From assembly GCA_937996685.1 (NCBI GenBank), contig CALKUP010000006.1, positions 64,001 to 128,000 of the forward strand: a DNA stretch of 64,000 nucleotides. The letters are read 5' to 3'. Below are positions 8,071-38,141 of the stretch, one piece after another; the first letter of the stretch is position 1, and every line of letters begins with the position of its first letter. Origin of the DNA: an uncultured bacterium (lineage in GTDB: Bacteria; Patescibacteriota; Patescibacteriia; UBA9570; XYC2-FULL-38-9). A program made the position numbers and the translations under genes. The notes beneath the pieces were generated by a model that did no database searches, had not been told where the DNA came from, and saw only the letters and a program-made list of their open reading frames with translations.

Positions 8071-8964
8071 TTAATCAATTTCACCATTTTCTCTCAAAAC
8101 GCGAATCGCATTAAATCTTCTACCCTCATCCACTTTATCCTTAACAATCTCGCGGAGTGCAATAATGGTTTGATTATATGCCAATTCCAACCCCTTATTT
8201 ACAACTTGCATCCATTGATCAAAATCAAATTGCTCAGCTTCAAGCAGTTTTTTGATTATGTCACCAAAATCACGCGGACTAAAACACGAATCCAGAAAAT
8301 GTGTTTCCAAAAATTGCTCGATGTCATCACCAGTACTGATTTTCTTAAGCCATGCAAGGGCAACCTTCTGATTCATGGGCAGATACGAAATTTGCGTTTT
8401 TTCCAACCAGTCGAAATATTCTACAATTTTAGCCTCAATATCTTGCTCAATATAGCCTTTGGCGTGTGCAATTTTGTCATTACGATATGTAATAATCGAC
8501 TTCTTAATACTACGTGCATCAATTTTTGTTAGACCTACAATCTTCAATAAATCGATAATTTCAGTTTCGCCCAAAAAAGCGATGGCATGCGGTGATTCAG
8601 GCGCTAAAATACCCTCTGCCCCATTACGGGGGTTTTTAATAGTTAATGCCAACTCATATTTATCTTTCTCCTCTCTGTAAATTCGCAAAATTTTATACTG
8701 TATGGCGAGCATAAAAAGGAGATGAAATGGCATTACCGCAAAAGGATTCGGTTCAGCTTCGTCTTTATTAAGAGAAGAAAATGCTTCCCATAGGTGATTT
8801 ATATAATCATTTTCCGTAGTGTCTCGACGAATGGGTAGATAGTCAAAAATCTCAGCTCCGATTACTGAATACGAGACATCCTTTCTATTATCCTCTATAG
8901 CAGACTCTCGTATTTGTTCAAGATAATCTTGATGTTTGTAAAAATATTCATCATCTTCTGACAT
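8071..8964 (-). CDS. Hypothetical HEPN-motif protein, possibly an Abi2 (AbiD/AbiF)-like abortive-infection effector, last gene of the type I R-M cluster
   Basis: 297 aa. Rx4-6H motif RNDKIAH in a helical C-terminal half. Position immediately downstream of hsdMS with a 6-nt gap. Low GC like the rest of the island. Confidence 0.45.
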   Translation of the reverse strand: MSEDDEYFYKHQDYLEQIRESAIEDNRKDVSYSVIGAEIFDYLPIRRDTTENDYINHLWEAFSSLNKDEAEPNPFAVMPFHLLFMLAIQYKILRIYREEKDKYELALTIKNPRNGAEGILAPESPHAIAFLGETEIIDLLKIVGLTKIDARSIKKSIITYRNDKIAHAKGYIEQDIEAKIVEYFDWLEKTQISYLPMNQKVALAWLKKISTGDDIEQFLETHFLDSCFSPRDFGDIIKKLLEAEQFDFDQWMQVVNKGLELAYNQTIIALREIVKDKVDEGRRFNAIRVLRENGEID

Positions 8965-8969
8965 AGTAG

Positions 8970-11390
8970 TTACATCCAGAGTTTGGCAATCACGTCCTTG
9001 ATCTTTTGATCGTAAATGACAATGAGTTTTTTGGCAGATTCGACTAGCATACGCTCAACCTTAATCTTCTCTACAATCTGCCCTTGTACTTCGAGGGATG
9101 GGAGAGGTATTTTAAAATTTTTCACACTACCCGCAGCAAGATTGGGCTGTGCAACACCATTTTTAGATTCAAGGATCATATCTGCAAAAAATGACGTCCC
9201 AAAATACACCGCTAGAAAATCTACCATTACTTTTTCTCTGGGACGTACTATGACCAATGATGAAGCGATAGCTCCTTCAGAAAAGTTCTCAACTTTGGCA
9301 TATTTACCTAAAGACCCTCGCAAACATAATAATATATCATCTTTCTGAACCTTACCGCCTCCAAGCAGATCAAATCTGACTCGTGATATGAAATCCATAT
9401 TCTTCATGTCAATTCCATCATCTGTTAAATGGCCCGCATTAATAAATGGAATTCCATTGTCTACCCGGTCAGATTTTGAAGGATAATTTACGCCTCTATC
9501 GCCATTTTCAAAATCACAAATCTCCCCCAACTTCACTTTCTCCCACTCAGGATCGATGTCAATTTTGGGTTTCCAATTTTGGACGATTTGCTTGGCACCG
9601 GCGATGATGCCTGTGTAACCATTCAGCTCCGCTACAATTTGCTCTTGAATTTCGAGAGACGGGAGAGGGATTTGAAATGACTGCAACATTCCAAGCTTGA
9701 TATAAGGCATTGTATTTCCAAGTTTCTGCAACTGCATATTCTCTTTCAGAGAATTATTCAAAACTTGAAAAAGATACTTTACATTTACATTTTTGAAATT
9801 ACTCAAAACATAAGTTCGTTGATATGCGTCAAATTTTCCTTTGTAATATTTCACTGCACCAACATCACCGTTTCCAGCAATAAGTAACGCTTCTGTATCA
9901 AATGAAAATACATCAATAAATGTGTTTTCTTTAGCACAAGTAAAGAATGGGTACTCGCCGTTAGGATTTCCTTCATTTACATCTTTTCTGCCTGTTGTAA
10001 TTTCACAAAGTTCTTTTAACTCCACCATTTGCCATTTGACCTTACTGTAATCAGTAACTACACGATATCTGTCACCTGAAAGGTTATAATCACCGTTTTC
10101 GGCAATTTTTGATTTTTCTACATACATTGCAAGCTTGCTTTCTACTTTTTCACCGGCGTTCCATTTGTTCAAAATATCTAGTGCAGCTGGCAAATCATTT
10201 TTGTTAATTGGCCTCTTGGTTGCACCGAGATCAAGACCATCTTGTTCAATTTTTACGAACAAAATTTCTTGATTTGTTTTTGTTAACTCATTATTAAAAA
10301 GCAAAATACTTGTTTTTACTCCGCTATACGGAGCAAAAACACCTGATGGTAAACTTACAACAGCATATAGACCGTCCTCAATAAGATTTTTTCGAAGTTG
10401 CTTATGAGCCGTACCCGATTGAAAAATAATCCCTTCCGGCACGATAATTCCTGCGCGACCATTTGGGCGCAAGTGATTCATGATGTAATCAACGAATAAC
10501 ACCTCCGAACGGGTAGACTCAATGCTAAATTTTTTGTGGGTTGCTACACCACCTTTCGGTGACATAAACGGCGGATTCGCAAGAATGACATCGAACTTAT
10601 CACCCCATCGATCTTCTTCGCTCAATGAATTATATTGAACAATTTTAGGGTTCTTAAACTGATGTAAATACATATTCACTTGAGCAATACGCACCATGCT
10701 CGGATCAACATCGTATCCCTCAAAATTCTCCATTATTTTACGACGCTGCGATGGTGTTAATGGGGATTCTTTTTTTTTGGGGTCATTTATGCCATCATGC
10801 TGTTCCAAAATATGCTTGTATGAACTCACCAAAAAACCACCTGTTCCACATGCCGGGTCCAGTATCTTATCATCTTTTGTCGGATTAATAACATCCACAA
10901 TAAAATCGATGATATGACGCGGCGTGCGAAACTGCCCAGCATCACCTTGACTCGACATAATCGAAAGCAAATACTCATATGCATTACCAAGCTCTTCTGG
11001 ATGAGAATAATCAAAGAAATCAATCTCTTTCAAGAATAATCCAAGCGTTTCTGGTGAACGATATGGTAAAAATGCTGATTTAAAAATTCCACGGAATAAT
11101 TCTGGGAGTTGTTTCGCCTCGGAAAATTTAAGTAGAGCTTCGGCATATAAATTCATTCGCTCTTGATTCCCAACGCGCGAATCCATGAGCCGCGACCATG
11201 CATATTGCTCAAGCTCACCAATAAAAAAAGAAGGTTCATCTCCTTGTTTAATTGCAGCCTGATCCATATCATCCATGAATTTGTAAATCAAAGCATTGGT
11301 GATTTGCTCGATTTGTGAAGTCGGGTTTGGAACAACACCTACAAGCACTTGCCTTGCAGCGTCTATATGTCTTTTAGTTTCTGAATTCAT
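8970..11390 (-). CDS. hsdMS: Type I restriction-modification methyltransferase fused to the specificity subunit (HsdM-HsdS single polypeptide, two target-recognition domains)
   Basis: N6-adenine methyltransferase motifs DPACGTGGFL (motif I) and NPPF (motif IV). C-terminal 330 aa contain two TRDs, each ending in the conserved HsdS helix LPSLEIQEQIVAELN / LPSLEVQGQIVEKI. Confidence 0.8.
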   Translation of the reverse strand: MNSETKRHIDAARQVLVGVVPNPTSQIEQITNALIYKFMDDMDQAAIKQGDEPSFFIGELEQYAWSRLMDSRVGNQERMNLYAEALLKFSEAKQLPELFRGIFKSAFLPYRSPETLGLFLKEIDFFDYSHPEELGNAYEYLLSIMSSQGDAGQFRTPRHIIDFIVDVINPTKDDKILDPACGTGGFLVSSYKHILEQHDGINDPKKKESPLTPSQRRKIMENFEGYDVDPSMVRIAQVNMYLHQFKNPKIVQYNSLSEEDRWGDKFDVILANPPFMSPKGGVATHKKFSIESTRSEVLFVDYIMNHLRPNGRAGIIVPEGIIFQSGTAHKQLRKNLIEDGLYAVVSLPSGVFAPYSGVKTSILLFNNELTKTNQEILFVKIEQDGLDLGATKRPINKNDLPAALDILNKWNAGEKVESKLAMYVEKSKIAENGDYNLSGDRYRVVTDYSKVKWQMVELKELCEITTGRKDVNEGNPNGEYPFFTCAKENTFIDVFSFDTEALLIAGNGDVGAVKYYKGKFDAYQRTYVLSNFKNVNVKYLFQVLNNSLKENMQLQKLGNTMPYIKLGMLQSFQIPLPSLEIQEQIVAELNGYTGIIAGAKQIVQNWKPKIDIDPEWEKVKLGEICDFENGDRGVNYPSKSDRVDNGIPFINAGHLTDDGIDMKNMDFISRVRFDLLGGGKVQKDDILLCLRGSLGKYAKVENFSEGAIASSLVIVRPREKVMVDFLAVYFGTSFFADMILESKNGVAQPNLAAGSVKNFKIPLPSLEVQGQIVEKIKVERMLVESAKKLIVIYDQKIKDVIAKLWM

Positions 11391-11392
11391 AT

Positions 11393-13993
11393 TTACAAGT
11401 TTGTTATATGATACGCGTAATCATGGATATATTGAGGAACTATTGCCTTATAACCATTCAGCATCTGATATTCCTCAAAATCAAACGTGGACTCTGTGTT
11501 AAATCGTGCTGTTTGTTTGGTTGAGATAATTTCTCGCACTTTTTCATCTGTTGCGTATGCCTTAAAAAACATCTTGACTGGCGCATAATGCTTTTGATCA
11601 ACTGGGTTTACTTCCATGAATTTCTCCCATTCGGACTCTAGTAAGTCTTCTTTATTTTCAAATGATTCTTTTTGCCCAAAAGCGACTTCTAAAAATTCCT
11701 TTACGGAAATTCGACGATCGACATCAAATATTTTACGTATTTTATCGAGATTCAAAAAATGTTTTGGCTTATCAAAAATTTCTTTCTTCGCAAAATCTTC
11801 TGCTTCTTGTAAATCACCATTCTCCCACAATGATTTTAGGACTTCATTACCCACAACATCTTCTTCAACAGCTTGTTTAAAGCCTTCTCGGTCAATGCGC
11901 ATTCCTTCTACGCCAATAGCTATTGCAGCAACAGAAATGACTTTATCATCCATCGCTAAATCAACAGGTCCTTTAAATACTGCATTGCCATTTTCGTCTA
12001 CAAATTCTCCTTGCTGTCCTTCTGAATCAGCATTTTTTTCAGTTGCGGTCACTTTTTTTATTTGTGGCAGTTTGATTTTCTCATCATACGGAAATTCATG
12101 TTCAAAATATTCACAACTGGCAAAGAAATCAAAGAACTTAAATTCGTTCTTATCGACATGAATTTGTTCATTTGTCGTATAATCATGATAATCGAATGAA
12201 TACTTTCTAGTACCGCGGCCTTTCATCTGCACAAAATCAGACGGACTAAACACAGGTCGCATAAGACCAATATTCAACAAATCTGGGCAGTCATACCCTG
12301 TTGTCATCATGCCAACTGTAACCACTACTCGTGTCTTTCCTGAATCATATCCTTCAAGAAATTTCACTGGCCCACCAAGTCTGTTATTCGCAAAATTTAT
12401 TGTCATCTGCTGTGCCTTCTGCACTTGAGATGTCACCTGCACAGCAAAATCAGATTCATTATATTGATCTGGCCATTTTTCATAAGCAAGTCTATTGAGA
12501 ATATTTGCTACACGCGCAGCATGACTTTGTGAAACACAAAAGACAATGGATTTTCCAAAAAGTGGGAGGCCAAATTTTTGACCAATTGGATCCAGAAGAC
12601 CGTTATCAATAAATGCCTTACACATCGCAATATTTGTCTCTTCATTGAAAAATTTCTTTTCATAGTGTCGTTCATCAAACACCTCATTCATTTCTCCGGC
12701 TTCTGTATTTGTAGATACACCGTATCCTTTTTCAGATAGAAGTTCAGTGGTAATTTCTGTACGAGCATCTATGCGCGTTGGCTGAATAAGATGCCCATCT
12801 TTTGAGCCTGTATTTAAATCATATGAAAAAGTAGGAACACCTGATTCACAACCGAAAGTTTTATACGTATCTAAAAGCAAGCGCCGTTCATGCTCCCGCT
12901 GATTATCTAATGTAACGGTATTAACATTCTTCAAATAATTTTTTGGCGTAGCAGTTAAACCAAGTTTATAACCAACAAAATATTCAAACACAGCGCGACT
13001 ATTACCACCTATAGAACGATGAGCTTCATCTGAAATCACTAGTTCAAAATCTGTAGGTGAAAAATCCTTTTTGTATCGGTCGCCTGCGAGAAATGTTTGC
13101 ACTGTAGAAACGACAATGCTCGCATTTTGCCAAGAATCCTTTTTGTTCTTATAAATAACACTTGGAAAATCACGTCCCAAATACTGTGTAAATGCCTTAT
13201 GCGCCTGGTCTTCTAACTCTAATCTATCTACTAAAAATAAAATACGCTGTGCGTTACCAGACTGTAAAAACAATTTTATAGCAGCCGCGGAAATCAGCGT
13301 CTTGCCTGTACCTGTTGCCATCTCAAACAGAAACCGATTATTACCCAACTGAGCAGACTGCTGCAAAGAATTAATCGCTTGCATCTGATACGAACGCAAC
13401 TGTTTAAGGCTATTGTCTTTCAAGAACGCGCTGCGAGTATATTCATTTTGAAATAAAGGATCTTTTTCGAAACCCGGCATCTGAGATTCAATTATATAAT
13501 TCGCTCCTACTTCAATTTGCGCTAACCCTGCGGGGTCTGGTGTATATTTTTCGTACTGTGAAATTGAATCTTGCGTAGGAAAACGCGAAATTGTTTCCGG
13601 ATTACCGTTTTGAGTATCCCAAAAATAATGAATGTTACCATTCGACAAAATCACAAAACGCGCATTTATATTACGCGCATAATTACGGGCCTGTTCCTTT
13701 GCAGAAAGCGGGTCGATTGATTCTTTTTTTGCCTCAACAACAACCAGCGCTCGCCCGTTCTTATCTAGCAATAAAAAATCGATAAATCCTTTTGAAGCAT
13801 TTTCAAAATCATCACCTAACTCGCTAATACTCACTCCTGGCTCCAGCTGAATATTTGCCTTACCATTTTTATCATCAAAAAATCGCCACCCAGATTCTTG
13901 TAGTAGGTTATTTATTTTTATTCTTGCTTGGGCTTCTTTTTTATTTTTCATAACATTATTTTTCTTCATCATCCATTCGTCTTCGTCGATCAT
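11393..13993 (-). CDS. hsdR: Type I restriction enzyme R subunit (HsdR)
   Basis: N-terminal PD-(D/E)xK nuclease (FIDFLLLDKNGRALVVVEAKK). SF2 helicase Walker A (ATGTGKT) and DEAH box (SDEAHRS). The true start is probably 13972 or 13951 (MKNKKEAQARIKINNLLQESGW); the longest ORF overlaps the upstream gene by 38 nt. Confidence 0.85.
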   Translation of the reverse strand: MIDEDEWMMKKNNVMKNKKEAQARIKINNLLQESGWRFFDDKNGKANIQLEPGVSISELGDDFENASKGFIDFLLLDKNGRALVVVEAKKESIDPLSAKEQARNYARNINARFVILSNGNIHYFWDTQNGNPETISRFPTQDSISQYEKYTPDPAGLAQIEVGANYIIESQMPGFEKDPLFQNEYTRSAFLKDNSLKQLRSYQMQAINSLQQSAQLGNNRFLFEMATGTGKTLISAAAIKLFLQSGNAQRILFLVDRLELEDQAHKAFTQYLGRDFPSVIYKNKKDSWQNASIVVSTVQTFLAGDRYKKDFSPTDFELVISDEAHRSIGGNSRAVFEYFVGYKLGLTATPKNYLKNVNTVTLDNQREHERRLLLDTYKTFGCESGVPTFSYDLNTGSKDGHLIQPTRIDARTEITTELLSEKGYGVSTNTEAGEMNEVFDERHYEKKFFNEETNIAMCKAFIDNGLLDPIGQKFGLPLFGKSIVFCVSQSHAARVANILNRLAYEKWPDQYNESDFAVQVTSQVQKAQQMTINFANNRLGGPVKFLEGYDSGKTRVVVTVGMMTTGYDCPDLLNIGLMRPVFSPSDFVQMKGRGTRKYSFDYHDYTTNEQIHVDKNEFKFFDFFASCEYFEHEFPYDEKIKLPQIKKVTATEKNADSEGQQGEFVDENGNAVFKGPVDLAMDDKVISVAAIAIGVEGMRIDREGFKQAVEEDVVGNEVLKSLWENGDLQEAEDFAKKEIFDKPKHFLNLDKIRKIFDVDRRISVKEFLEVAFGQKESFENKEDLLESEWEKFMEVNPVDQKHYAPVKMFFKAYATDEKVREIISTKQTARFNTESTFDFEEYQMLNGYKAIVPQYIHDYAYHITNL

Positions 13994-14552
13994 CTAAAAT
14001 CTCATCCTCAAATTCAAAATAAAGCGTGCCTTGCGGTCGTCTCTGATACCCCAATAACTCCATTGCAAAAGTTGAAAGGCTATTTACCTTATCACCAATT
14101 TTGATTTTATCATTTTCAATAACCTCAGCAACAATGTTTGCATCTCTCGTAAATGTCAGCTTTGAGCCAACAGGGATGCCATATTGATCAAAATGAAACC
14201 GTGAACGTCGCTCTTTCACTTCATCAACCTCTTTCTCTTGCTCTTTCGTTAAACCACTGTCAATTCTTTCTTCTTGAATTTGAACCTTTTTTAACGCCAA
14301 GGCAGCATATTCAGGATTCATCTTAAAAAATTCACGATTATCTCGCGCTCGTCGATCAGCAAAAATAGAATGCAACCACTTTTCTTCTTTCTCGGCATTT
14401 TCAACTACTGCAGCATAATACACTTCAAAAGGAAGCGGGGTGCCAGTTCGATCCAGTTGCTTCATCCGCTCTGTGACATCGCCATGAGTAAAACCAATTT
14501 TAATGTACTCTGGCATTGATTCATTTGTTAATATGTAGACAATCTGATTCAT
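13956..14552 (-). CDS. GIY-YIG nuclease-family protein (T5orf172-like N-domain plus DUF4357-like C-domain)
   Basis: VYILTNESMPEYIKIGFT ... R...N ... EFF motif pattern of the T5orf172/GIY-YIG fold. First gene of the R-M operon. Confidence 0.65.
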   Translation of the reverse strand: MNQIVYILTNESMPEYIKIGFTHGDVTERMKQLDRTGTPLPFEVYYAAVVENAEKEEKWLHSIFADRRARDNREFFKMNPEYAALALKKVQIQEERIDSGLTKEQEKEVDEVKERRSRFHFDQYGIPVGSKLTFTRDANIVAEVIENDKIKIGDKVNSLSTFAMELLGYQRRPQGTLYFEFEDEILDDRRRRMDDEEK

Positions 14553-14755
14553 ACGCCAACTTCAGCAACCTATTGATAAAAACTCAAAACTTCGCAAAAT
14601 TCGAGTTAATTTGAATAATATATACATATAATATAAAGCAATTAGCGAAAAAATGCCATAGCACTGAATACGTAGAATAAACCGAAATTTAGGGGGTGTA
14701 CCCCTTCAGGGCACGGGCAGGAATCCTCGATTCCCGCTCTCCTTCTAGAGATAAC

Positions 14756-14789
14756 AAAAAAGCGGTCCCAGAAGGACCACTCTTTTGTT
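14756..14789. terminator. Bidirectional rho-independent terminator downstream of tRNA-Trp
   Basis: GGTCC-CAGAA-GGACC hairpin flanked by an A6 tract and TTTTGTT. Confidence 0.6.
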
Positions 14790-14794
14790 ATATG

Positions 14795-14865
14795 CAGGGG
14801 GTGCAGGAATCGAACCCGCCCAAATGGTTTTGGAGACCAGTGTACTACCGATATACGAACCCCCT
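14795..14865 (-). tRNA. tRNA-Trp (anticodon CCA)
   Basis: Manual fold: acceptor AGGGGGT/ACCCCCT, D-arm GTAT/GTAC, anticodon loop CTCCAAA, T-arm GCGGG-TTCGATT-CCTGC, discriminator G. The 3' CCA is not encoded. Confidence 0.8.
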
Positions 14866-35750: not shown

Positions 35751-37202
35751 TTACTTCCGGATGGCGCCGTGGGGAGTACCTTCATGGAAGGCGGCCGACG
35801 TCTGCACGCCAACGATCGCTTCCACACAGAACTCAGGCAACGTGCGTGCGCCGACGTAGGTCATCGAGGACTGAAGTCCTGTGATGTAGGCCGCGACGAA
35901 GCGACCGACGGTGTCCTGGCCTTCACGCAGGAATACCTTCGAGTTGGAGATACCCTCCTCGTACATCGCACGGATCGCAGCCTCGAATTCACCAATGCCG
36001 GCGTTGCGGTCCACAACGGCGCGACGCGATGCCATGCCGAAGTTCACCTTGTAGGCCGCGCCGTCCGGGTCGCGCTTGAGCTCGCCGGGCGCCTCGTACG
36101 TACCCGCGAGAGATGTGCCGATCATGACGCGGCTTGCTCCGGCAGCGAGGTAGAGACCCAGATCGCGCGGGTGCTTGACGCCCCCGTCGGCCCAGATGAA
36201 TCCACCAACATCCTTCGCCGCAAGCGCGCAAGCGACGGTAGTGCTGAAGCTCGGGCGACCGACACCGGTCTGCAACCGCGTCGTACACATCGCTCCCGGG
36301 CCGACGTTCGTCTTCACGATGTCGGCACCGGCCTCGATCAGACGCTTGACGCCGTCGGGCATGCAGACATTGCCGGCCACGAGCTTCACGCCGGGATCGA
36401 CCGCGGCACGGACCTCGCGTAGTGCCTTGAGCATCTTAACCTGGTCGCCGTGCGCCGTGTCGAGCACGATCACACTGGCGCCAGCCTCGACACACGCGAC
36501 AGCCTTTTTGACCGACTCGCCGTTGATTCCGACGGCAGCACCGACTGCCATGTCGCTCGTCTGCCATGGGTTGAGAGCTCGGTGGACCAGAAGGTCCCGA
36601 CTGACGGTGCCGATGAGCACGCCACTGCTGTCCACAACCGGAGCCACGCTAACGCGAGCAGCGAAGAGCTGTTCGAACATGTACTGAAGCGAGGAGTCGG
36701 GACGGATCGCGAATGGCGCGGTCATGAAGGCATGCGCCTTCGCAAACGGGTCGAGCTTCTCGCGAAACTTGTCATCCCACAGGTCGTCGGGAGTGACAAC
36801 ACCGAGTGGCTTGCGCTGATCGTCAACCACGATCACCAAGCGGCAGCCGCGGCGGTTCACGAGATCCATCACGAGGCGCGCGTCCTGGTTCGGCCCCACG
36901 GTGAGCGGGGTCTCGAAGATCGGATGCGCACTGCAGACCTTGCGGATCGCGCGCGTGACGGTCTCGACCGACATGTCCTGTGGAAGGATGGCGATGCCAC
37001 CGGCGCGAGCGAGGGCCTCGGCCAGACGCTTCCCCGCCACCGCGTTCATGTTCGCGGCGACGATCGGATTGCTGCCAGGCAGGCCGTCGATCGGGGTGAT
37101 GTTGACATCACGGCGGGAGTTACCGGTCCAGTGACCCTGGCAAAGGAAGACGTCCTCGAGCGCGAGCTCACGACAAGCATCCTCAGAGTTAAGAAAACGC
37201 AT
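35751..37202 (-). CDS. IMP dehydrogenase / GMP reductase family protein with a CBS pair (GuaB1-like), high-GC island
   Basis: Catalytic loop NVGPGAMCTTR. CBS pair within ...LTVGPNQDARLVMDLV...VVDSSGVLIGTVSRDLL. About 62-67% GC. Start ATG 37202 (MRFLNSED) preceded by SD GGAAGGAGA. Confidence 0.75.
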   Translation of the reverse strand: MRFLNSEDACRELALEDVFLCQGHWTGNSRRDVNITPIDGLPGSNPIVAANMNAVAGKRLAEALARAGGIAILPQDMSVETVTRAIRKVCSAHPIFETPLTVGPNQDARLVMDLVNRRGCRLVIVVDDQRKPLGVVTPDDLWDDKFREKLDPFAKAHAFMTAPFAIRPDSSLQYMFEQLFAARVSVAPVVDSSGVLIGTVSRDLLVHRALNPWQTSDMAVGAAVGINGESVKKAVACVEAGASVIVLDTAHGDQVKMLKALREVRAAVDPGVKLVAGNVCMPDGVKRLIEAGADIVKTNVGPGAMCTTRLQTGVGRPSFSTTVACALAAKDVGGFIWADGGVKHPRDLGLYLAAGASRVMIGTSLAGTYEAPGELKRDPDGAAYKVNFGMASRRAVVDRNAGIGEFEAAIRAMYEEGISNSKVFLREGQDTVGRFVAAYITGLQSSMTYVGARTLPEFCVEAIVGVQTSAAFHEGTPHGAIRK

Positions 37203-37391
37203 GCTGTCTCCTTCCTGCGTATGCAGCAAACGCCCATCTCGTGGGCGTTATCTCTGTTTTTTCAATTTTCAATTCAGTCGTGTGCAATGGGATCTCCATT
37301 GCGCTTTCCACACTGAACGATGTGCCAACCTTACACCATTTTTTTCTTAAAAGTCAACAATAAATGTGCGTAACTTTTTTACAAAATATCA

Positions 37392-37420
37392 TTGACCTTT
37401 TTCTTATTTCCGCGTAGGCT
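37392..37420 (+). promoter_or_regulatory. Actinobacteria-style promoter TTGACC-17-TAGGCT for the rdgB-like gene
   Basis: TTGACC at 37392-37397, 17-nt spacer, TAGGCT (TANNNT) at 37415-37420. GGAGAA SD 8 nt before ATG 37461. Confidence 0.4.
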
Positions 37421-37460
37421 GACCGCGCACATTTCACAACCTTTCGACTGGAGAACGCGC

Positions 37461-38141
37461 ATGCACAACGCACTGTCTGCATATACCGCTGTCGTCGCAA
37501 CCGGTAACGGCGGCAAGTCAGAAGAAGTTTTGCGGATTCTCGCACGACTCGGGATTCGCGCCGTGACACTCGAGAGCCTCGGGTTCGCTGTCCTCGACGT
37601 CGAGGAGACCCAGACAACCTACACCGGTAACGCGCGCCTCAAGGCGAACGCGCATTTCGACCAGCACAGCCGAGACATCACCGAGAAACTCGGCAAAGAG
37701 ACCTGGTTCTTGGTCTGCGAAGACTTCGGGCTCGCAGTGGATGCGCTGCTCTGTCTTGCAACAACAGAGCAGGGGTACACCGGCTTCCCTGGCCTCTACA
37801 CCCGGAGGTTTCACCCCGGAACCGACGCTGATCGGGCACGAAAAGTCCTTTATCTACTGAAGCAACGCTGGGCTGCCGTTCGGACTGCAAAATTCTTCTG
37901 CGGCGTGGCACTCCGCGGCCCTGGAATCGACCTAGCTGAGCTCCGGCTCTGCAACGGACAGATCACCATCGAGCCGCGAGGAGATCAGTCAAGCTTTCCG
38001 CTTGACCAAATCTTCATTCCGAGCCTGGACCGCGAGGCACGCACCTTCGGGGAAATGCGCCCGGAAGCGAAGGATCGGATCAGTGCTCGTGGCCTGGCTG
38101 TTCGGGCCGTGGTCGAAGAGCTGTTGAAGAAATTGGCGTAA
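37461..38141 (+). CDS. rdgB: Non-canonical purine NTP pyrophosphatase (RdgB/HAM1 ITPase family), high-GC island
   Basis: AVVATGNGGKSEE (ATGNxGKxxE motif) and FIPSLDREARTFGEMRPEAKDRISARG C-terminal motif. Start ATG 37461 (track ORF from 37392). Confidence 0.8.
   Translation: MHNALSAYTAVVATGNGGKSEEVLRILARLGIRAVTLESLGFAVLDVEETQTTYTGNARLKANAHFDQHSRDITEKLGKETWFLVCEDFGLAVDALLCLATTEQGYTGFPGLYTRRFHPGTDADRARKVLYLLKQRWAAVRTAKFFCGVALRGPGIDLAELRLCNGQITIEPRGDQSSFPLDQIFIPSLDREARTFGEMRPEAKDRISARGLAVRAVVEELLKKLA

Follow-up and report, generated by a model that had tools for sequence, protein, structure and literature searches.

A previously unmodelled, very probably HEPN-type protein family behind type I restriction-modification genes with a fused HsdM-HsdS subunit

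The window, the whole 64,000 nucleotide stretch of DNA analysed here, contains a gene for a 297 aa protein that is very probably a member of the HEPN superfamily, located at the end of a set of type I restriction-modification (R-M) genes. Judged from profile comparisons, its family appears to be new, having no existing model and belonging to no curated HEPN family. Its genes are a near-obligate partner of one R-M lineage, rather than generic lodgers behind R-M genes, a relationship that was missed in the initial annotation of this DNA. The explanation as a whole, that an unmodelled HEPN family serves as an accessory of R-M systems with a fused HsdM-HsdS subunit (HsdMS) and probably acts as a back-up anti-phage RNase, is considered to have about an even chance of being correct.

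The gene occupies positions 8,071-8,964 on the minus strand, with its stop codon at 8,071-8,073; the open reading frame originally proposed, for which no strand had been given, was confirmed as running from ATG to stop. It is the last of an array of genes on the same strand, which encode a T5orf172 protein, HsdR, the fused HsdMS and the HEPN protein, in agreement with its earlier description as the distal gene of the hsdR-hsdMS operon. The first of these, a 198 aa T5orf172/MUG113 protein (13,956-14,552, minus strand), is a second accessory gene of the island, matching Pfam T5orf172 at 1.1e-15 and the PADLOC candidate PDC-S57 at 1.9e-61, and overlaps the start of hsdR by 38 nt. HsdR, an EcoAI-like motor and nuclease subunit of 866 aa (11,393-13,993, minus strand), matches Pfam ResIII (2.5e-39) and HSDR_N_2, as well as the NCBIfam model of the EcoAI/FtnUII R subunit with a value of 1e-62 that falls below that model's cutoff. 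The 806 aa HsdMS polypeptide (8,970-11,390, minus strand) combines Pfam N6_Mtase (9e-56) with two stretches of Methylase_S (1.6e-39), representing two target-recognition domains (TRDs), and matches PADLOC MTase_I at 2e-102. These neighbours therefore have the components of a type I R-M system, namely an HsdR with nuclease and SF2 motor, an HsdM N6-adenine methyltransferase and an HsdS with two TRDs, and were classified by PADLOC as REase_I, MTase_I and Specificity_I. The ATG of the HEPN gene lies 5 nt past the hsdMS stop codon, and the gene is described as co-transcribed and tightly packed with hsdMS. The GC content of the island is 0.37-0.38, compared with about 0.43-0.46 in its flanks, and its upstream edge adjoins a tRNA-Trp gene (14,794-14,865, minus strand) detected by ARAGORN and Rfam; the R-M island looks horizontally acquired.

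That the 297 aa gene is real follows from its relatives, comprising 198 homologues at E<=1e-3 in a collection of 5.8 billion proteins and, in an exhaustive profile search at the same threshold, 336 representative clusters defined at 50% identity. None of the 198 carries a functional name or a Pfam domain. The protein itself has no match in Pfam, PADLOC or NCBIfam at E<=0.1 and nothing meaningful among the PHROGs at E<=1, while sequence searches of the PDB returned no HEPN-related or significant match, whether the query was the protein alone or one of the profiles A1, A2 and A4. A second large-database search, which used a broad alignment in order to find annotated bridging proteins, recovered only the same unannotated family; a phage collection contained no relatives, and plasmids just one match. 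Literature searches found no earlier description of the family.

Alignment of these proteins divides the window protein into three parts. The conserved family core, residues 36-215 (8,320-8,859, minus strand), corresponds to profile positions 1-205, which align to target residues from about 36 to 240, and occurs alone in short forms of 220-245 aa. It includes a block of the form YLPIRR..ENDYI.HLW, a hydrophobic helix at residues 74-98 with a conserved H81, and a variable insert at about 100-143. Preceding it is an optional N-terminal extension, residues 1-35 (8,860-8,964, minus strand) with a predicted helix at 3-26, found only in the window protein, P0048 and P0105 among 35 aligned sequences and alike in those three; the window gene has no alternative start codon where most homologues begin. 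Following it is an optional C-terminal module of five helices, residues 216-297 (8,074-8,319, minus strand; helices modelled at 215-292), which is missing from the short forms. Neither the extension nor the module matches Pfam.

The core also contains the predicted catalytic site, the Rx5H motif RNDKIAH at residues 161-167 (R161, N162 and H167; 8,464-8,484, minus strand), situated just inside the C-terminal half, where an Rx4-6H signature had been noted originally. The HEPN active site is defined as Rx4-6H with a polar residue (N, D or H) immediately after the arginine (PMC3710099), a pattern to which RNDKIAH conforms. On its own, the motif is weak evidence and not significant, because R[NDH]x3-5H arises in 12.5% of shuffles of the same protein; a looser pattern is present in 17 of 35 unrelated ORFs. 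The conservation of the motif, unlike its mere presence, is significant. R161 and H167 are invariant among the 35 aligned homologues and, together with Y54, are the only residues invariant across 54 sequences reaching approximately 20% identity, with L43, L58, H81, M85, E133, N162 and G170 at least 90% conserved in the same set. The retention of R and H in homologues, on which the first proposal of a HEPN protein was made to depend, extends throughout the family: RN..H is present in every protein of 200 aa or longer but one (253 of 254), and that one is a fragment without the region. A strict form of the pattern is matched by 238 of the 254, with R and H separated by five residues in 160 proteins, four in 73 and six in five, and 15 of the other 16 keep R-N...H at the aligned position. 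An acidic residue upstream of this motif in HEPN proteins typically occurs as Ex3[KR] in helix-2. E133, the end of an AFLGE sequence at residues 129-133, is invariant in the A4 alignment; its context is not Ex3[KR], and it is located in the insert region.

Further indications of a HEPN fold come from individual scans of 68 distant family members. The Pfam model HEPN_RiboL-PSP (PF18735) was matched by 23 of these at E<=0.01, with a best E of 4.4e-6, HEPN_MAE_28990 by three and HEPN_Swt1 by one; the HEPN_RiboL-PSP trend is weak in three of 35 close members, and is also seen in a Paracoccus homologue. Wherever coordinates were reported, the matches fall on the C-terminal part of the HEPN models. 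All matches of relatives to PF18735, PF18737 and PF18731 were seen below the gathering score and the window protein itself has none: the best displayed PF18735 score, that of homologue P0185, is 25.7 bits against a gathering score of 28.4 bits, and the best E of 4.4e-6 corresponds by extrapolation to roughly 27 bits, still short of the threshold. The only non-HEPN models matched more than once by distant members were zinc-ribbon models, and in the per-protein scan a single fusion protein, P0248, accounted for all of them through its C-terminal extension. The nearest described relatives are the RiboL-PSP-HEPN and MAE_28990-HEPN families, of the Abi2/Swt1 assemblage.

The AF2 model of the full-length protein, built from an alignment of 35 sequences, is all-helical (pLDDT 88.6, pTM 0.82), as the protein had been described, and a model of the core only (residues 36-215) has a pLDDT of 88.6 and a pTM of 0.87. 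In both, DSSP places R161 near the C-terminal end of a helix at 147-165 and H167 at the opening of a loop at 166-175, which is followed by a long helix at 176-208; this corresponds to the HEPN definition, in which the motif occupies a helix end and the start of the following loop (PMC3710099). The short helices at 100-143 that precede helix 147-165 form the least conserved, recombining segment. A Foldseek comparison of the full-length model with the PDB and BFVD gave noise only. With the core model, nine of the top 17 matches were chains of the HEPN RNase toxin HepT (7bxo, 6m6w, 6m6u and 5yep), which lead the list with a probability of 0.85, a TM-score of 0.53 and an rmsd of about 6 A, values that are not significant at E>=0.49. 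The expectation that structure prediction would yield a HEPN fold thus stands to the extent that the models are compatible with one, but not as a statistically significant structural match.

Given that neither structural nor profile comparisons provide a significant match for the window protein itself, it might instead have a novel helical fold, in which the conserved R, N and H would serve, along with Y54, H81 and E133, some other chemistry or binding function, perhaps in association with the membrane through a helix at residues 75-93. The initial annotation saw no obvious transmembrane segment, and this holds with the qualification that the hydropathy of residues 75-93 is borderline for such a segment (Kyte-Doolittle mean 1.62); they are modelled as a helix at a pLDDT of about 97. 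Some of the conserved residues also lie outside the canonical HEPN set. Against a novel fold, the sub-threshold matches converge on three HEPN models and nothing else, the best structural neighbours are HepT toxins, and both the position of the motif and the variation in its spacing fit the HEPN definition. There is accordingly a small chance that the protein is not a HEPN at all, whereas a HEPN fold is highly probable.

To survey the genomic context of the family, loci were retrieved from metagenomes and GTDB genomes using the HEPN protein as the sole query, and 31 of them had enough upstream DNA to be evaluated. In 30 of these, a fused HsdMS of about 807 aa is encoded upstream on the same strand, preceded by an HsdR of about 850 aa, and the same context surrounds the most divergent member examined (P0265). 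The sole exception (L032) looks N-terminally truncated, its homology beginning 87 nt ahead of the first start codon, in frame. Between loci, HsdR sequences are about 70% identical. Most hosts are Patescibacteria, with others found among the Gammaproteobacteria, Bdellovibrionales, Elusimicrobiota, Phycisphaerales and Chlorobium. An example from a cultured host is plasmid pPZ02 of Paracoccus zhejiangensis (NZ_CP025432.1, module at 183,657-189,527), on which a helicase gene is followed by that for an 858 aa 'N-6 DNA methylase' and then by that for a 246 aa 'hypothetical protein', the HEPN homologue WP_101754819.1. This plasmid is mobilizable.

The reverse survey, seeded with HsdMS, comprised 61 evaluable loci drawn from at least 596 relatives, and found the HEPN gene in only 17 (28%). 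An obligate fourth subunit of fused-M-S R-M enzymes was consequently rejected as a description of the protein, 44 of the 61 sister loci (72%) being without the gene. The same position in HEPN-less loci is filled by ORFs of great variety, 42 of which formed 38 clusters, including AIPR, reverse transcriptase, Abi_C, GmrSD, a UvrD-like helicase, and TIR with 8xMP. This bears out the suggestion, made from the window alone, that the slot behind the R-M genes collects anti-phage accessory genes. Where the HEPN gene is present, it abuts hsdMS in 32 of 46 loci; in the other 14, cargo lies between the two and the HEPN gene is still 3'-terminal. This cargo includes DUF3800, Abi_C, a ThsB-like TIR with an 8xMP membrane protein, DUF2806 and, in two loci (L008 and L009), a homologue of T5orf172. 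Since the gap between hsdR and hsdMS likewise receives cargo, for example Fic or a Schlafen-like ATPase, the layout is one of HsdR, slot, HsdMS, slot, HEPN.

Such a layout raises the main rival explanation, which is that the HEPN protein is an autonomous toxin of the abortive infection type and a mere passenger that works independently of the R-M enzymes, under the control of its N-terminal block and optional C-terminal module, with the 3' side of hsdMS acting as a hotspot of integration or recombination that travels with the operon. The many unrelated defence genes in the same position of sister loci, the nesting of further cargo between hsdMS and the HEPN gene, the low frequency of the latter in HsdMS-seeded loci and its only modest co-phylogeny with HsdR and HsdM are all as would be expected of a passenger, and embedding of this sort can represent selfish hitch-hiking (bioRxiv 10.1101/2024.01.29.577857). 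A passenger should, nevertheless, also occur elsewhere, yet all evaluable HEPN-seeded loci but one lie behind a single R-M lineage, in hosts of different phyla and with identity as low as about 20%, and that one is the apparently truncated locus. The HEPN gene moreover remains last when other cargo enters the array. On balance the passenger explanation seems unlikely, with perhaps a one-in-four standing in our judgement, and the proposal that the family serves the type I R-M lineage with EcoAI-like HsdR and fused HsdM-HsdS as a dedicated accessory, though an optional one, is considered to be evenly poised between right and wrong.

The evolutionary histories of the components differ. Across the 31 loci, distances between HsdR sequences are tightly correlated with those between HsdM sequences (Mantel r = 0.93), whereas distances between HEPN cores correlate with those of HsdR or HsdM at r of about 0.40 (p about 0.003-0.007). 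Mean pairwise identity in the same loci is 64% for HsdR and 72% for HsdM, compared with 32% for the HsdS TRDs and 33% for the HEPN core. The HEPN genes are, furthermore, recombinationally mosaic. For instance, P0002 and P0050 share 90-100% of positions over the opening ~50 residues and again at residues ~211-270, whereas identity between them falls to 10-25% across the central ~60 residues; P0050, in turn, is identical to P0088 up to about residue 160 and unrelated to it immediately after. [quoted passage not shown] Fast divergence combined with cassette exchange is typical of defence specificity modules.

This pattern bears on a further alternative, in which the protein assists or regulates the R-M enzyme as a subunit without catalytic activity, its HEPN-like domain binding RNA or nucleotides and tuning restriction or methylation, for example through restriction alleviation or the assembly of the fused M-S subunit. 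The near-exclusive linkage and tight packing with hsdMS would suit such a subunit. Additionally, an engineered M-S fusion of EcoKI needed an extra free M subunit (PMC3510504), meaning that fused systems may need helpers, and some HEPN domains are non-catalytic binders (PMC3710099). Non-catalytic HEPNs, however, typically lose the catalytic triad (PMC3710099), whereas RN..H is universally conserved in this family; the absence of the gene from most sister R-M loci means that the enzyme does not need the protein; and divergence like that of the TRDs, with recombination of cassettes, fits an effector in an arms race better than a housekeeping subunit. A purely regulatory role is consequently regarded as improbable.

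Another possible role for a HEPN protein in an apparently acquired island is that of an addiction toxin, stabilising the R-M genes through post-segregational killing rather than defending against phage. HEPN toxins do act in toxin-antitoxin modules (PMC3710099), and one copy of the gene is plasmid-borne. Systems of the AbiF type can use RNA antitoxins. No cognate antitoxin gene or RNA is conserved alongside the HEPN gene, however: no conserved small partner gene was found, the downstream neighbours differing between the loci examined, and neither were tandem repeats resembling an RNA antitoxin. The neighbouring cargo, in addition, is overwhelmingly anti-phage. An addiction toxin is thus the least probable of the alternatives considered. 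Along with the tight packing with hsdMS, the lack of a conserved antitoxin gene or antitoxin-like repeat suggests that either the R-M complex or the protein itself would exert control.

The preferred explanation, an accessory RNase of the R-M system, can be outlined as follows. By analogy with characterised members of the superfamily, two HEPN protomers would pair so that their two Rx4-6H motifs form a metal-independent endoribonuclease site. As in the case of PrrC and EcoprrI, the RNase may be latent while the R-M system works, with either the R-M complex or the protein's N- and C-terminal modules keeping it inactive, and would be released when restriction fails, is overwhelmed or is inhibited by a phage anti-restriction factor. 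Once freed, it would cut tRNA, rRNA or mRNA, halting translation and so aborting the infection. The fast-evolving, recombining central segment is proposed to set the specificity for the trigger or the substrate. RNase activity itself is fairly likely, while functional coupling to the R-M enzyme, as opposed to autonomous action, is a tentative proposal falling slightly short of an even chance; a PrrC-like back-up anti-phage role appears the most likely function. A more specific version, judged rather unlikely, is that the protein constitutes a minimal guard of R-M integrity, in which a standalone HEPN RNase without an ATPase sensor docks on the HsdR/HsdMS complex of this lineage and is freed when a phage anti-restriction protein disables that complex, the recombining central cassette providing specificity for the trigger or RNA and evolving at an arms-race pace like that of the HsdS TRDs. 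Were this true, it would represent a second, independently evolved and much simpler circuit of the PrrC type, prevalent in CRISPR-poor Patescibacteria.

HEPN effectors linked to R-M systems are an established concept. At least 16 HEPN clades have such a linkage (PMC3710099), and these proteins have been proposed in general to be latent until restriction is inhibited (PMC3710099; bioRxiv 10.1101/2024.01.29.577857). They have been predicted to be a second prong of defence since 2013, and PrrC, which is hardly ever found outside type I R-M systems, is almost the only case that is understood mechanistically. What is new here is the family itself, unannotated in every library tried and 'hypothetical' according to PGAP, together with the nature of its partner, a natural type I lineage with fused HsdM-S, the absence of an ATPase sensor, and the mosaic evolution. 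A sizeable family has therefore been invisible to Pfam, NCBIfam, PADLOC and PGAP, despite an unusually clean linkage to R-M genes, and a model of it would improve the annotation of defence islands. The lack of an ATPase and the existence of a copy in a cultured host, on pPZ02, make it a compact test case for the gating of an RNase by an R-M complex. Patescibacteria, in which the family is commonest, are largely devoid of CRISPR-Cas (PMC4742961), and the family may thus account for a significant share of their immunity.

Among known systems, the family most closely approaches RiboL-PSP-HEPN, the only Pfam model it recurrently matches, and the two share a motif of the RNxxAH type with conserved R and H. 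The described RiboL-PSP-HEPN proteins are either fused to endoRNase L-PSP or encoded in an operon with ParB (PMC3710099), whereas those described here are standalone and tied to type I R-M genes, with no L-PSP domain or ParB neighbour seen in the examined loci; they also possess their own conserved N-terminal block (YLP...Y54...H81).

The initial annotation had proposed a relationship with Abi_2 (AbiD/AbiF), describing an AFLGE...IA block ahead of the motif, the one that includes the conserved E133, as putatively reminiscent of that family. Like the members of that family, some of which are reported to be embedded in R-M operons (PMC3710099), these are standalone helical proteins of about 300 aa, from the same broad HEPN assemblage. 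However, membership was not borne out: scans with Abi_2 (PF07751) of the window protein (at E<=0.1 and E<=10) and of about 110 family members (35 close, 68 distant and 10 fusions or distant members) returned no match, and no abortive-infection phenotype is known for the family. As Ribo L-PSP-HEPN has been placed in the Abi2/Swt1 assemblage, 'distantly related' to AbiF/AbiD (Anantharaman et al. 2013, PMC3710099), the Abi_2 proposal seems, on these profile comparisons, to have identified the right neighbourhood and the wrong family.

HepT of the MntA-HepT system (SO_3166/SO_3165) is the best structural neighbour of the core model, with the TM-score normalised to HepT, and has an Rx4H RNase motif. 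By contrast with the window protein, to which it is about 10% identical, HepT is 130 aa long and neutralised by a cognate MNT nucleotidyltransferase; there is no MNT gene at the window locus, and the core is larger, with extra helices. The logic of guilt by embedding is the same as that applied to other defence genes within type I R-M operons, including the PDC and HEC candidates of PADLOC. One of these, the HEPN protein HEC-08, lost its defence activity on mutation of the Rx4-6H histidine (bioRxiv 10.1101/2024.01.29.577857); it differs in that it is a HEPN of the DUF3644 type, carries zinc fingers and lies within Hma systems. The window protein matches no PADLOC v2 model.

The closest functional parallel would be PrrC, encoded with the type Ic R-M system EcoprrI, an RNase that the R-M complex keeps silent until an anti-restriction factor sets it free (PMC3710099; bioRxiv 10.1101/2024.01.29.577857). 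PrrC has an N-terminal ABC-ATPase regulatory domain and its gene sits between hsd genes, whereas the window protein, which has no detectable sequence similarity to PrrC, contains no ATPase domain of the PrrC/RloC type according to Pfam, NCBIfam and PADLOC, is encoded in the 3'-terminal position and accompanies a different R-M lineage with fused M-S. Common to both is a HEPN-type nuclease gene, predicted in the present case, that rarely occurs other than within or next to a type I hsd operon, as seen here in 30 of 31 loci and on the Paracoccus plasmid.

The block comprising the genes for the T5orf172 protein, HsdR, the fused HsdMS and the HEPN protein (8071-14865) has a GC content of 37-38%, compared with about 43-46% in its flanks, and is adjoined by a tRNA-Trp gene on the minus strand (14794-14865). 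With its low GC content and tRNA edge, the block carries the hallmarks of a defence island acquired by horizontal transfer.

Elsewhere in the window lies a block of the opposite composition, having about 60% GC relative to about 44% for the window, which harbours an IMP dehydrogenase gene (35751-37229, minus strand; Pfam IMPDH, E 1.5e-75) adjoined by a gene for a Ham1-like NTP pyrophosphatase (37392-38141, plus strand). Its outlying composition suggests that the block was acquired recently from a foreign source or that its codon usage is strongly biased.

Within the R-M operon, the T5orf172/MUG113 gene (13956-14552, minus strand), which matches the PADLOC candidate PDC-S57 (E 1.9e-61), overlaps the start of hsdR by 38 nt. 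In two related loci (L008 and L009), a homologue 41-43% identical to that of the window is instead found between hsdMS and the HEPN gene; hence one accessory fills different positions of the same R-M frame. Other cargo is also found upstream of the HEPN gene. Two loci carry a gene pair between hsdMS and the HEPN gene (L021, 9093-9975; L026, 9090-9987), encoding a 131 aa ThsB-like TIR protein and a 165 aa 8xMP octameric membrane protein, which has the appearance of a compact defence module pairing a TIR protein with a membrane effector. A DUF3800 protein is encoded directly between the same two genes in a further two loci (L005, 7241-8008; L012, 7255-7998), these loci being independent and the two proteins only 30% identical to each other; DUF3800 proteins may recurrently accompany the HEPN gene. 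Cargo also occupies a second position, between hsdR and hsdMS (L005, 3223-4662; L012, 3642-4727; L011, 2645-3013), the contents of which vary by locus: a Schlafen/AlbA_2 plus HATPase_c_4 protein, a Fic protein or an unknown 122 aa protein.

The HEPN protein is itself variable. In an alignment of the family, the alleles P0002, P0050 and P0088 are mosaic, with termini 90-100% identical and a central stretch of around 60 residues only 10-25% identical. Such near-identical termini flanking a divergent centre, along with the different position of the breakpoint in a second pair of these alleles, indicate that the region of the helix-2/helix-3 insert recombines in a cassette-like fashion. Some family members additionally possess long C-terminal extensions (P0184, 784 aa; P0121, 434 aa; P0248, 396 aa). 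That of P0248 contains zinc-ribbon domains, those of P0184 and P0121 have no match in Pfam, and all three could possibly represent alternative sensor or regulatory modules. In the window's protein, residues 75-93 form a helix, FAVMPFHLLFMLAIQYKIL, which includes the near-invariant H81 and is of borderline transmembrane-like hydropathy (Kyte-Doolittle mean 1.62). Given that a conserved transmembrane helix has been described as preceding the HEPN domain in proteins of the Abi2/Swt1 clade (PMC3710099), there is a small possibility that this protein is membrane-associated.

The complete three-gene module is also present on pPZ02, a mobilizable plasmid of Paracoccus zhejiangensis J6 (NZ_CP025432.1, 183657-189527), where it neighbours a Tn7-like transposition set (TniQ, TniB and a Mu-type transposase) and a tyrosine recombinase; this plasmid represents a tractable source of the module from a cultured host. 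The only HEPN-family copy lacking an R-M system within 10 kb is found in a Chisholmbacteria MAG (L032, 10001-10597), and may be a decaying orphan, as in-frame homology begins 87 nt upstream of its first start codon.

The window (8970-11390), like loci among L001-L113, encodes HsdM and HsdS as a single fused chain of about 807 aa, with no separate hsdM gene. The fused HsdMS has at least 596 metagenomic relatives, constituting a large natural type I R-M lineage; an engineered M-S fusion of EcoKI required an additional free M subunit for activity (PMC3510504).
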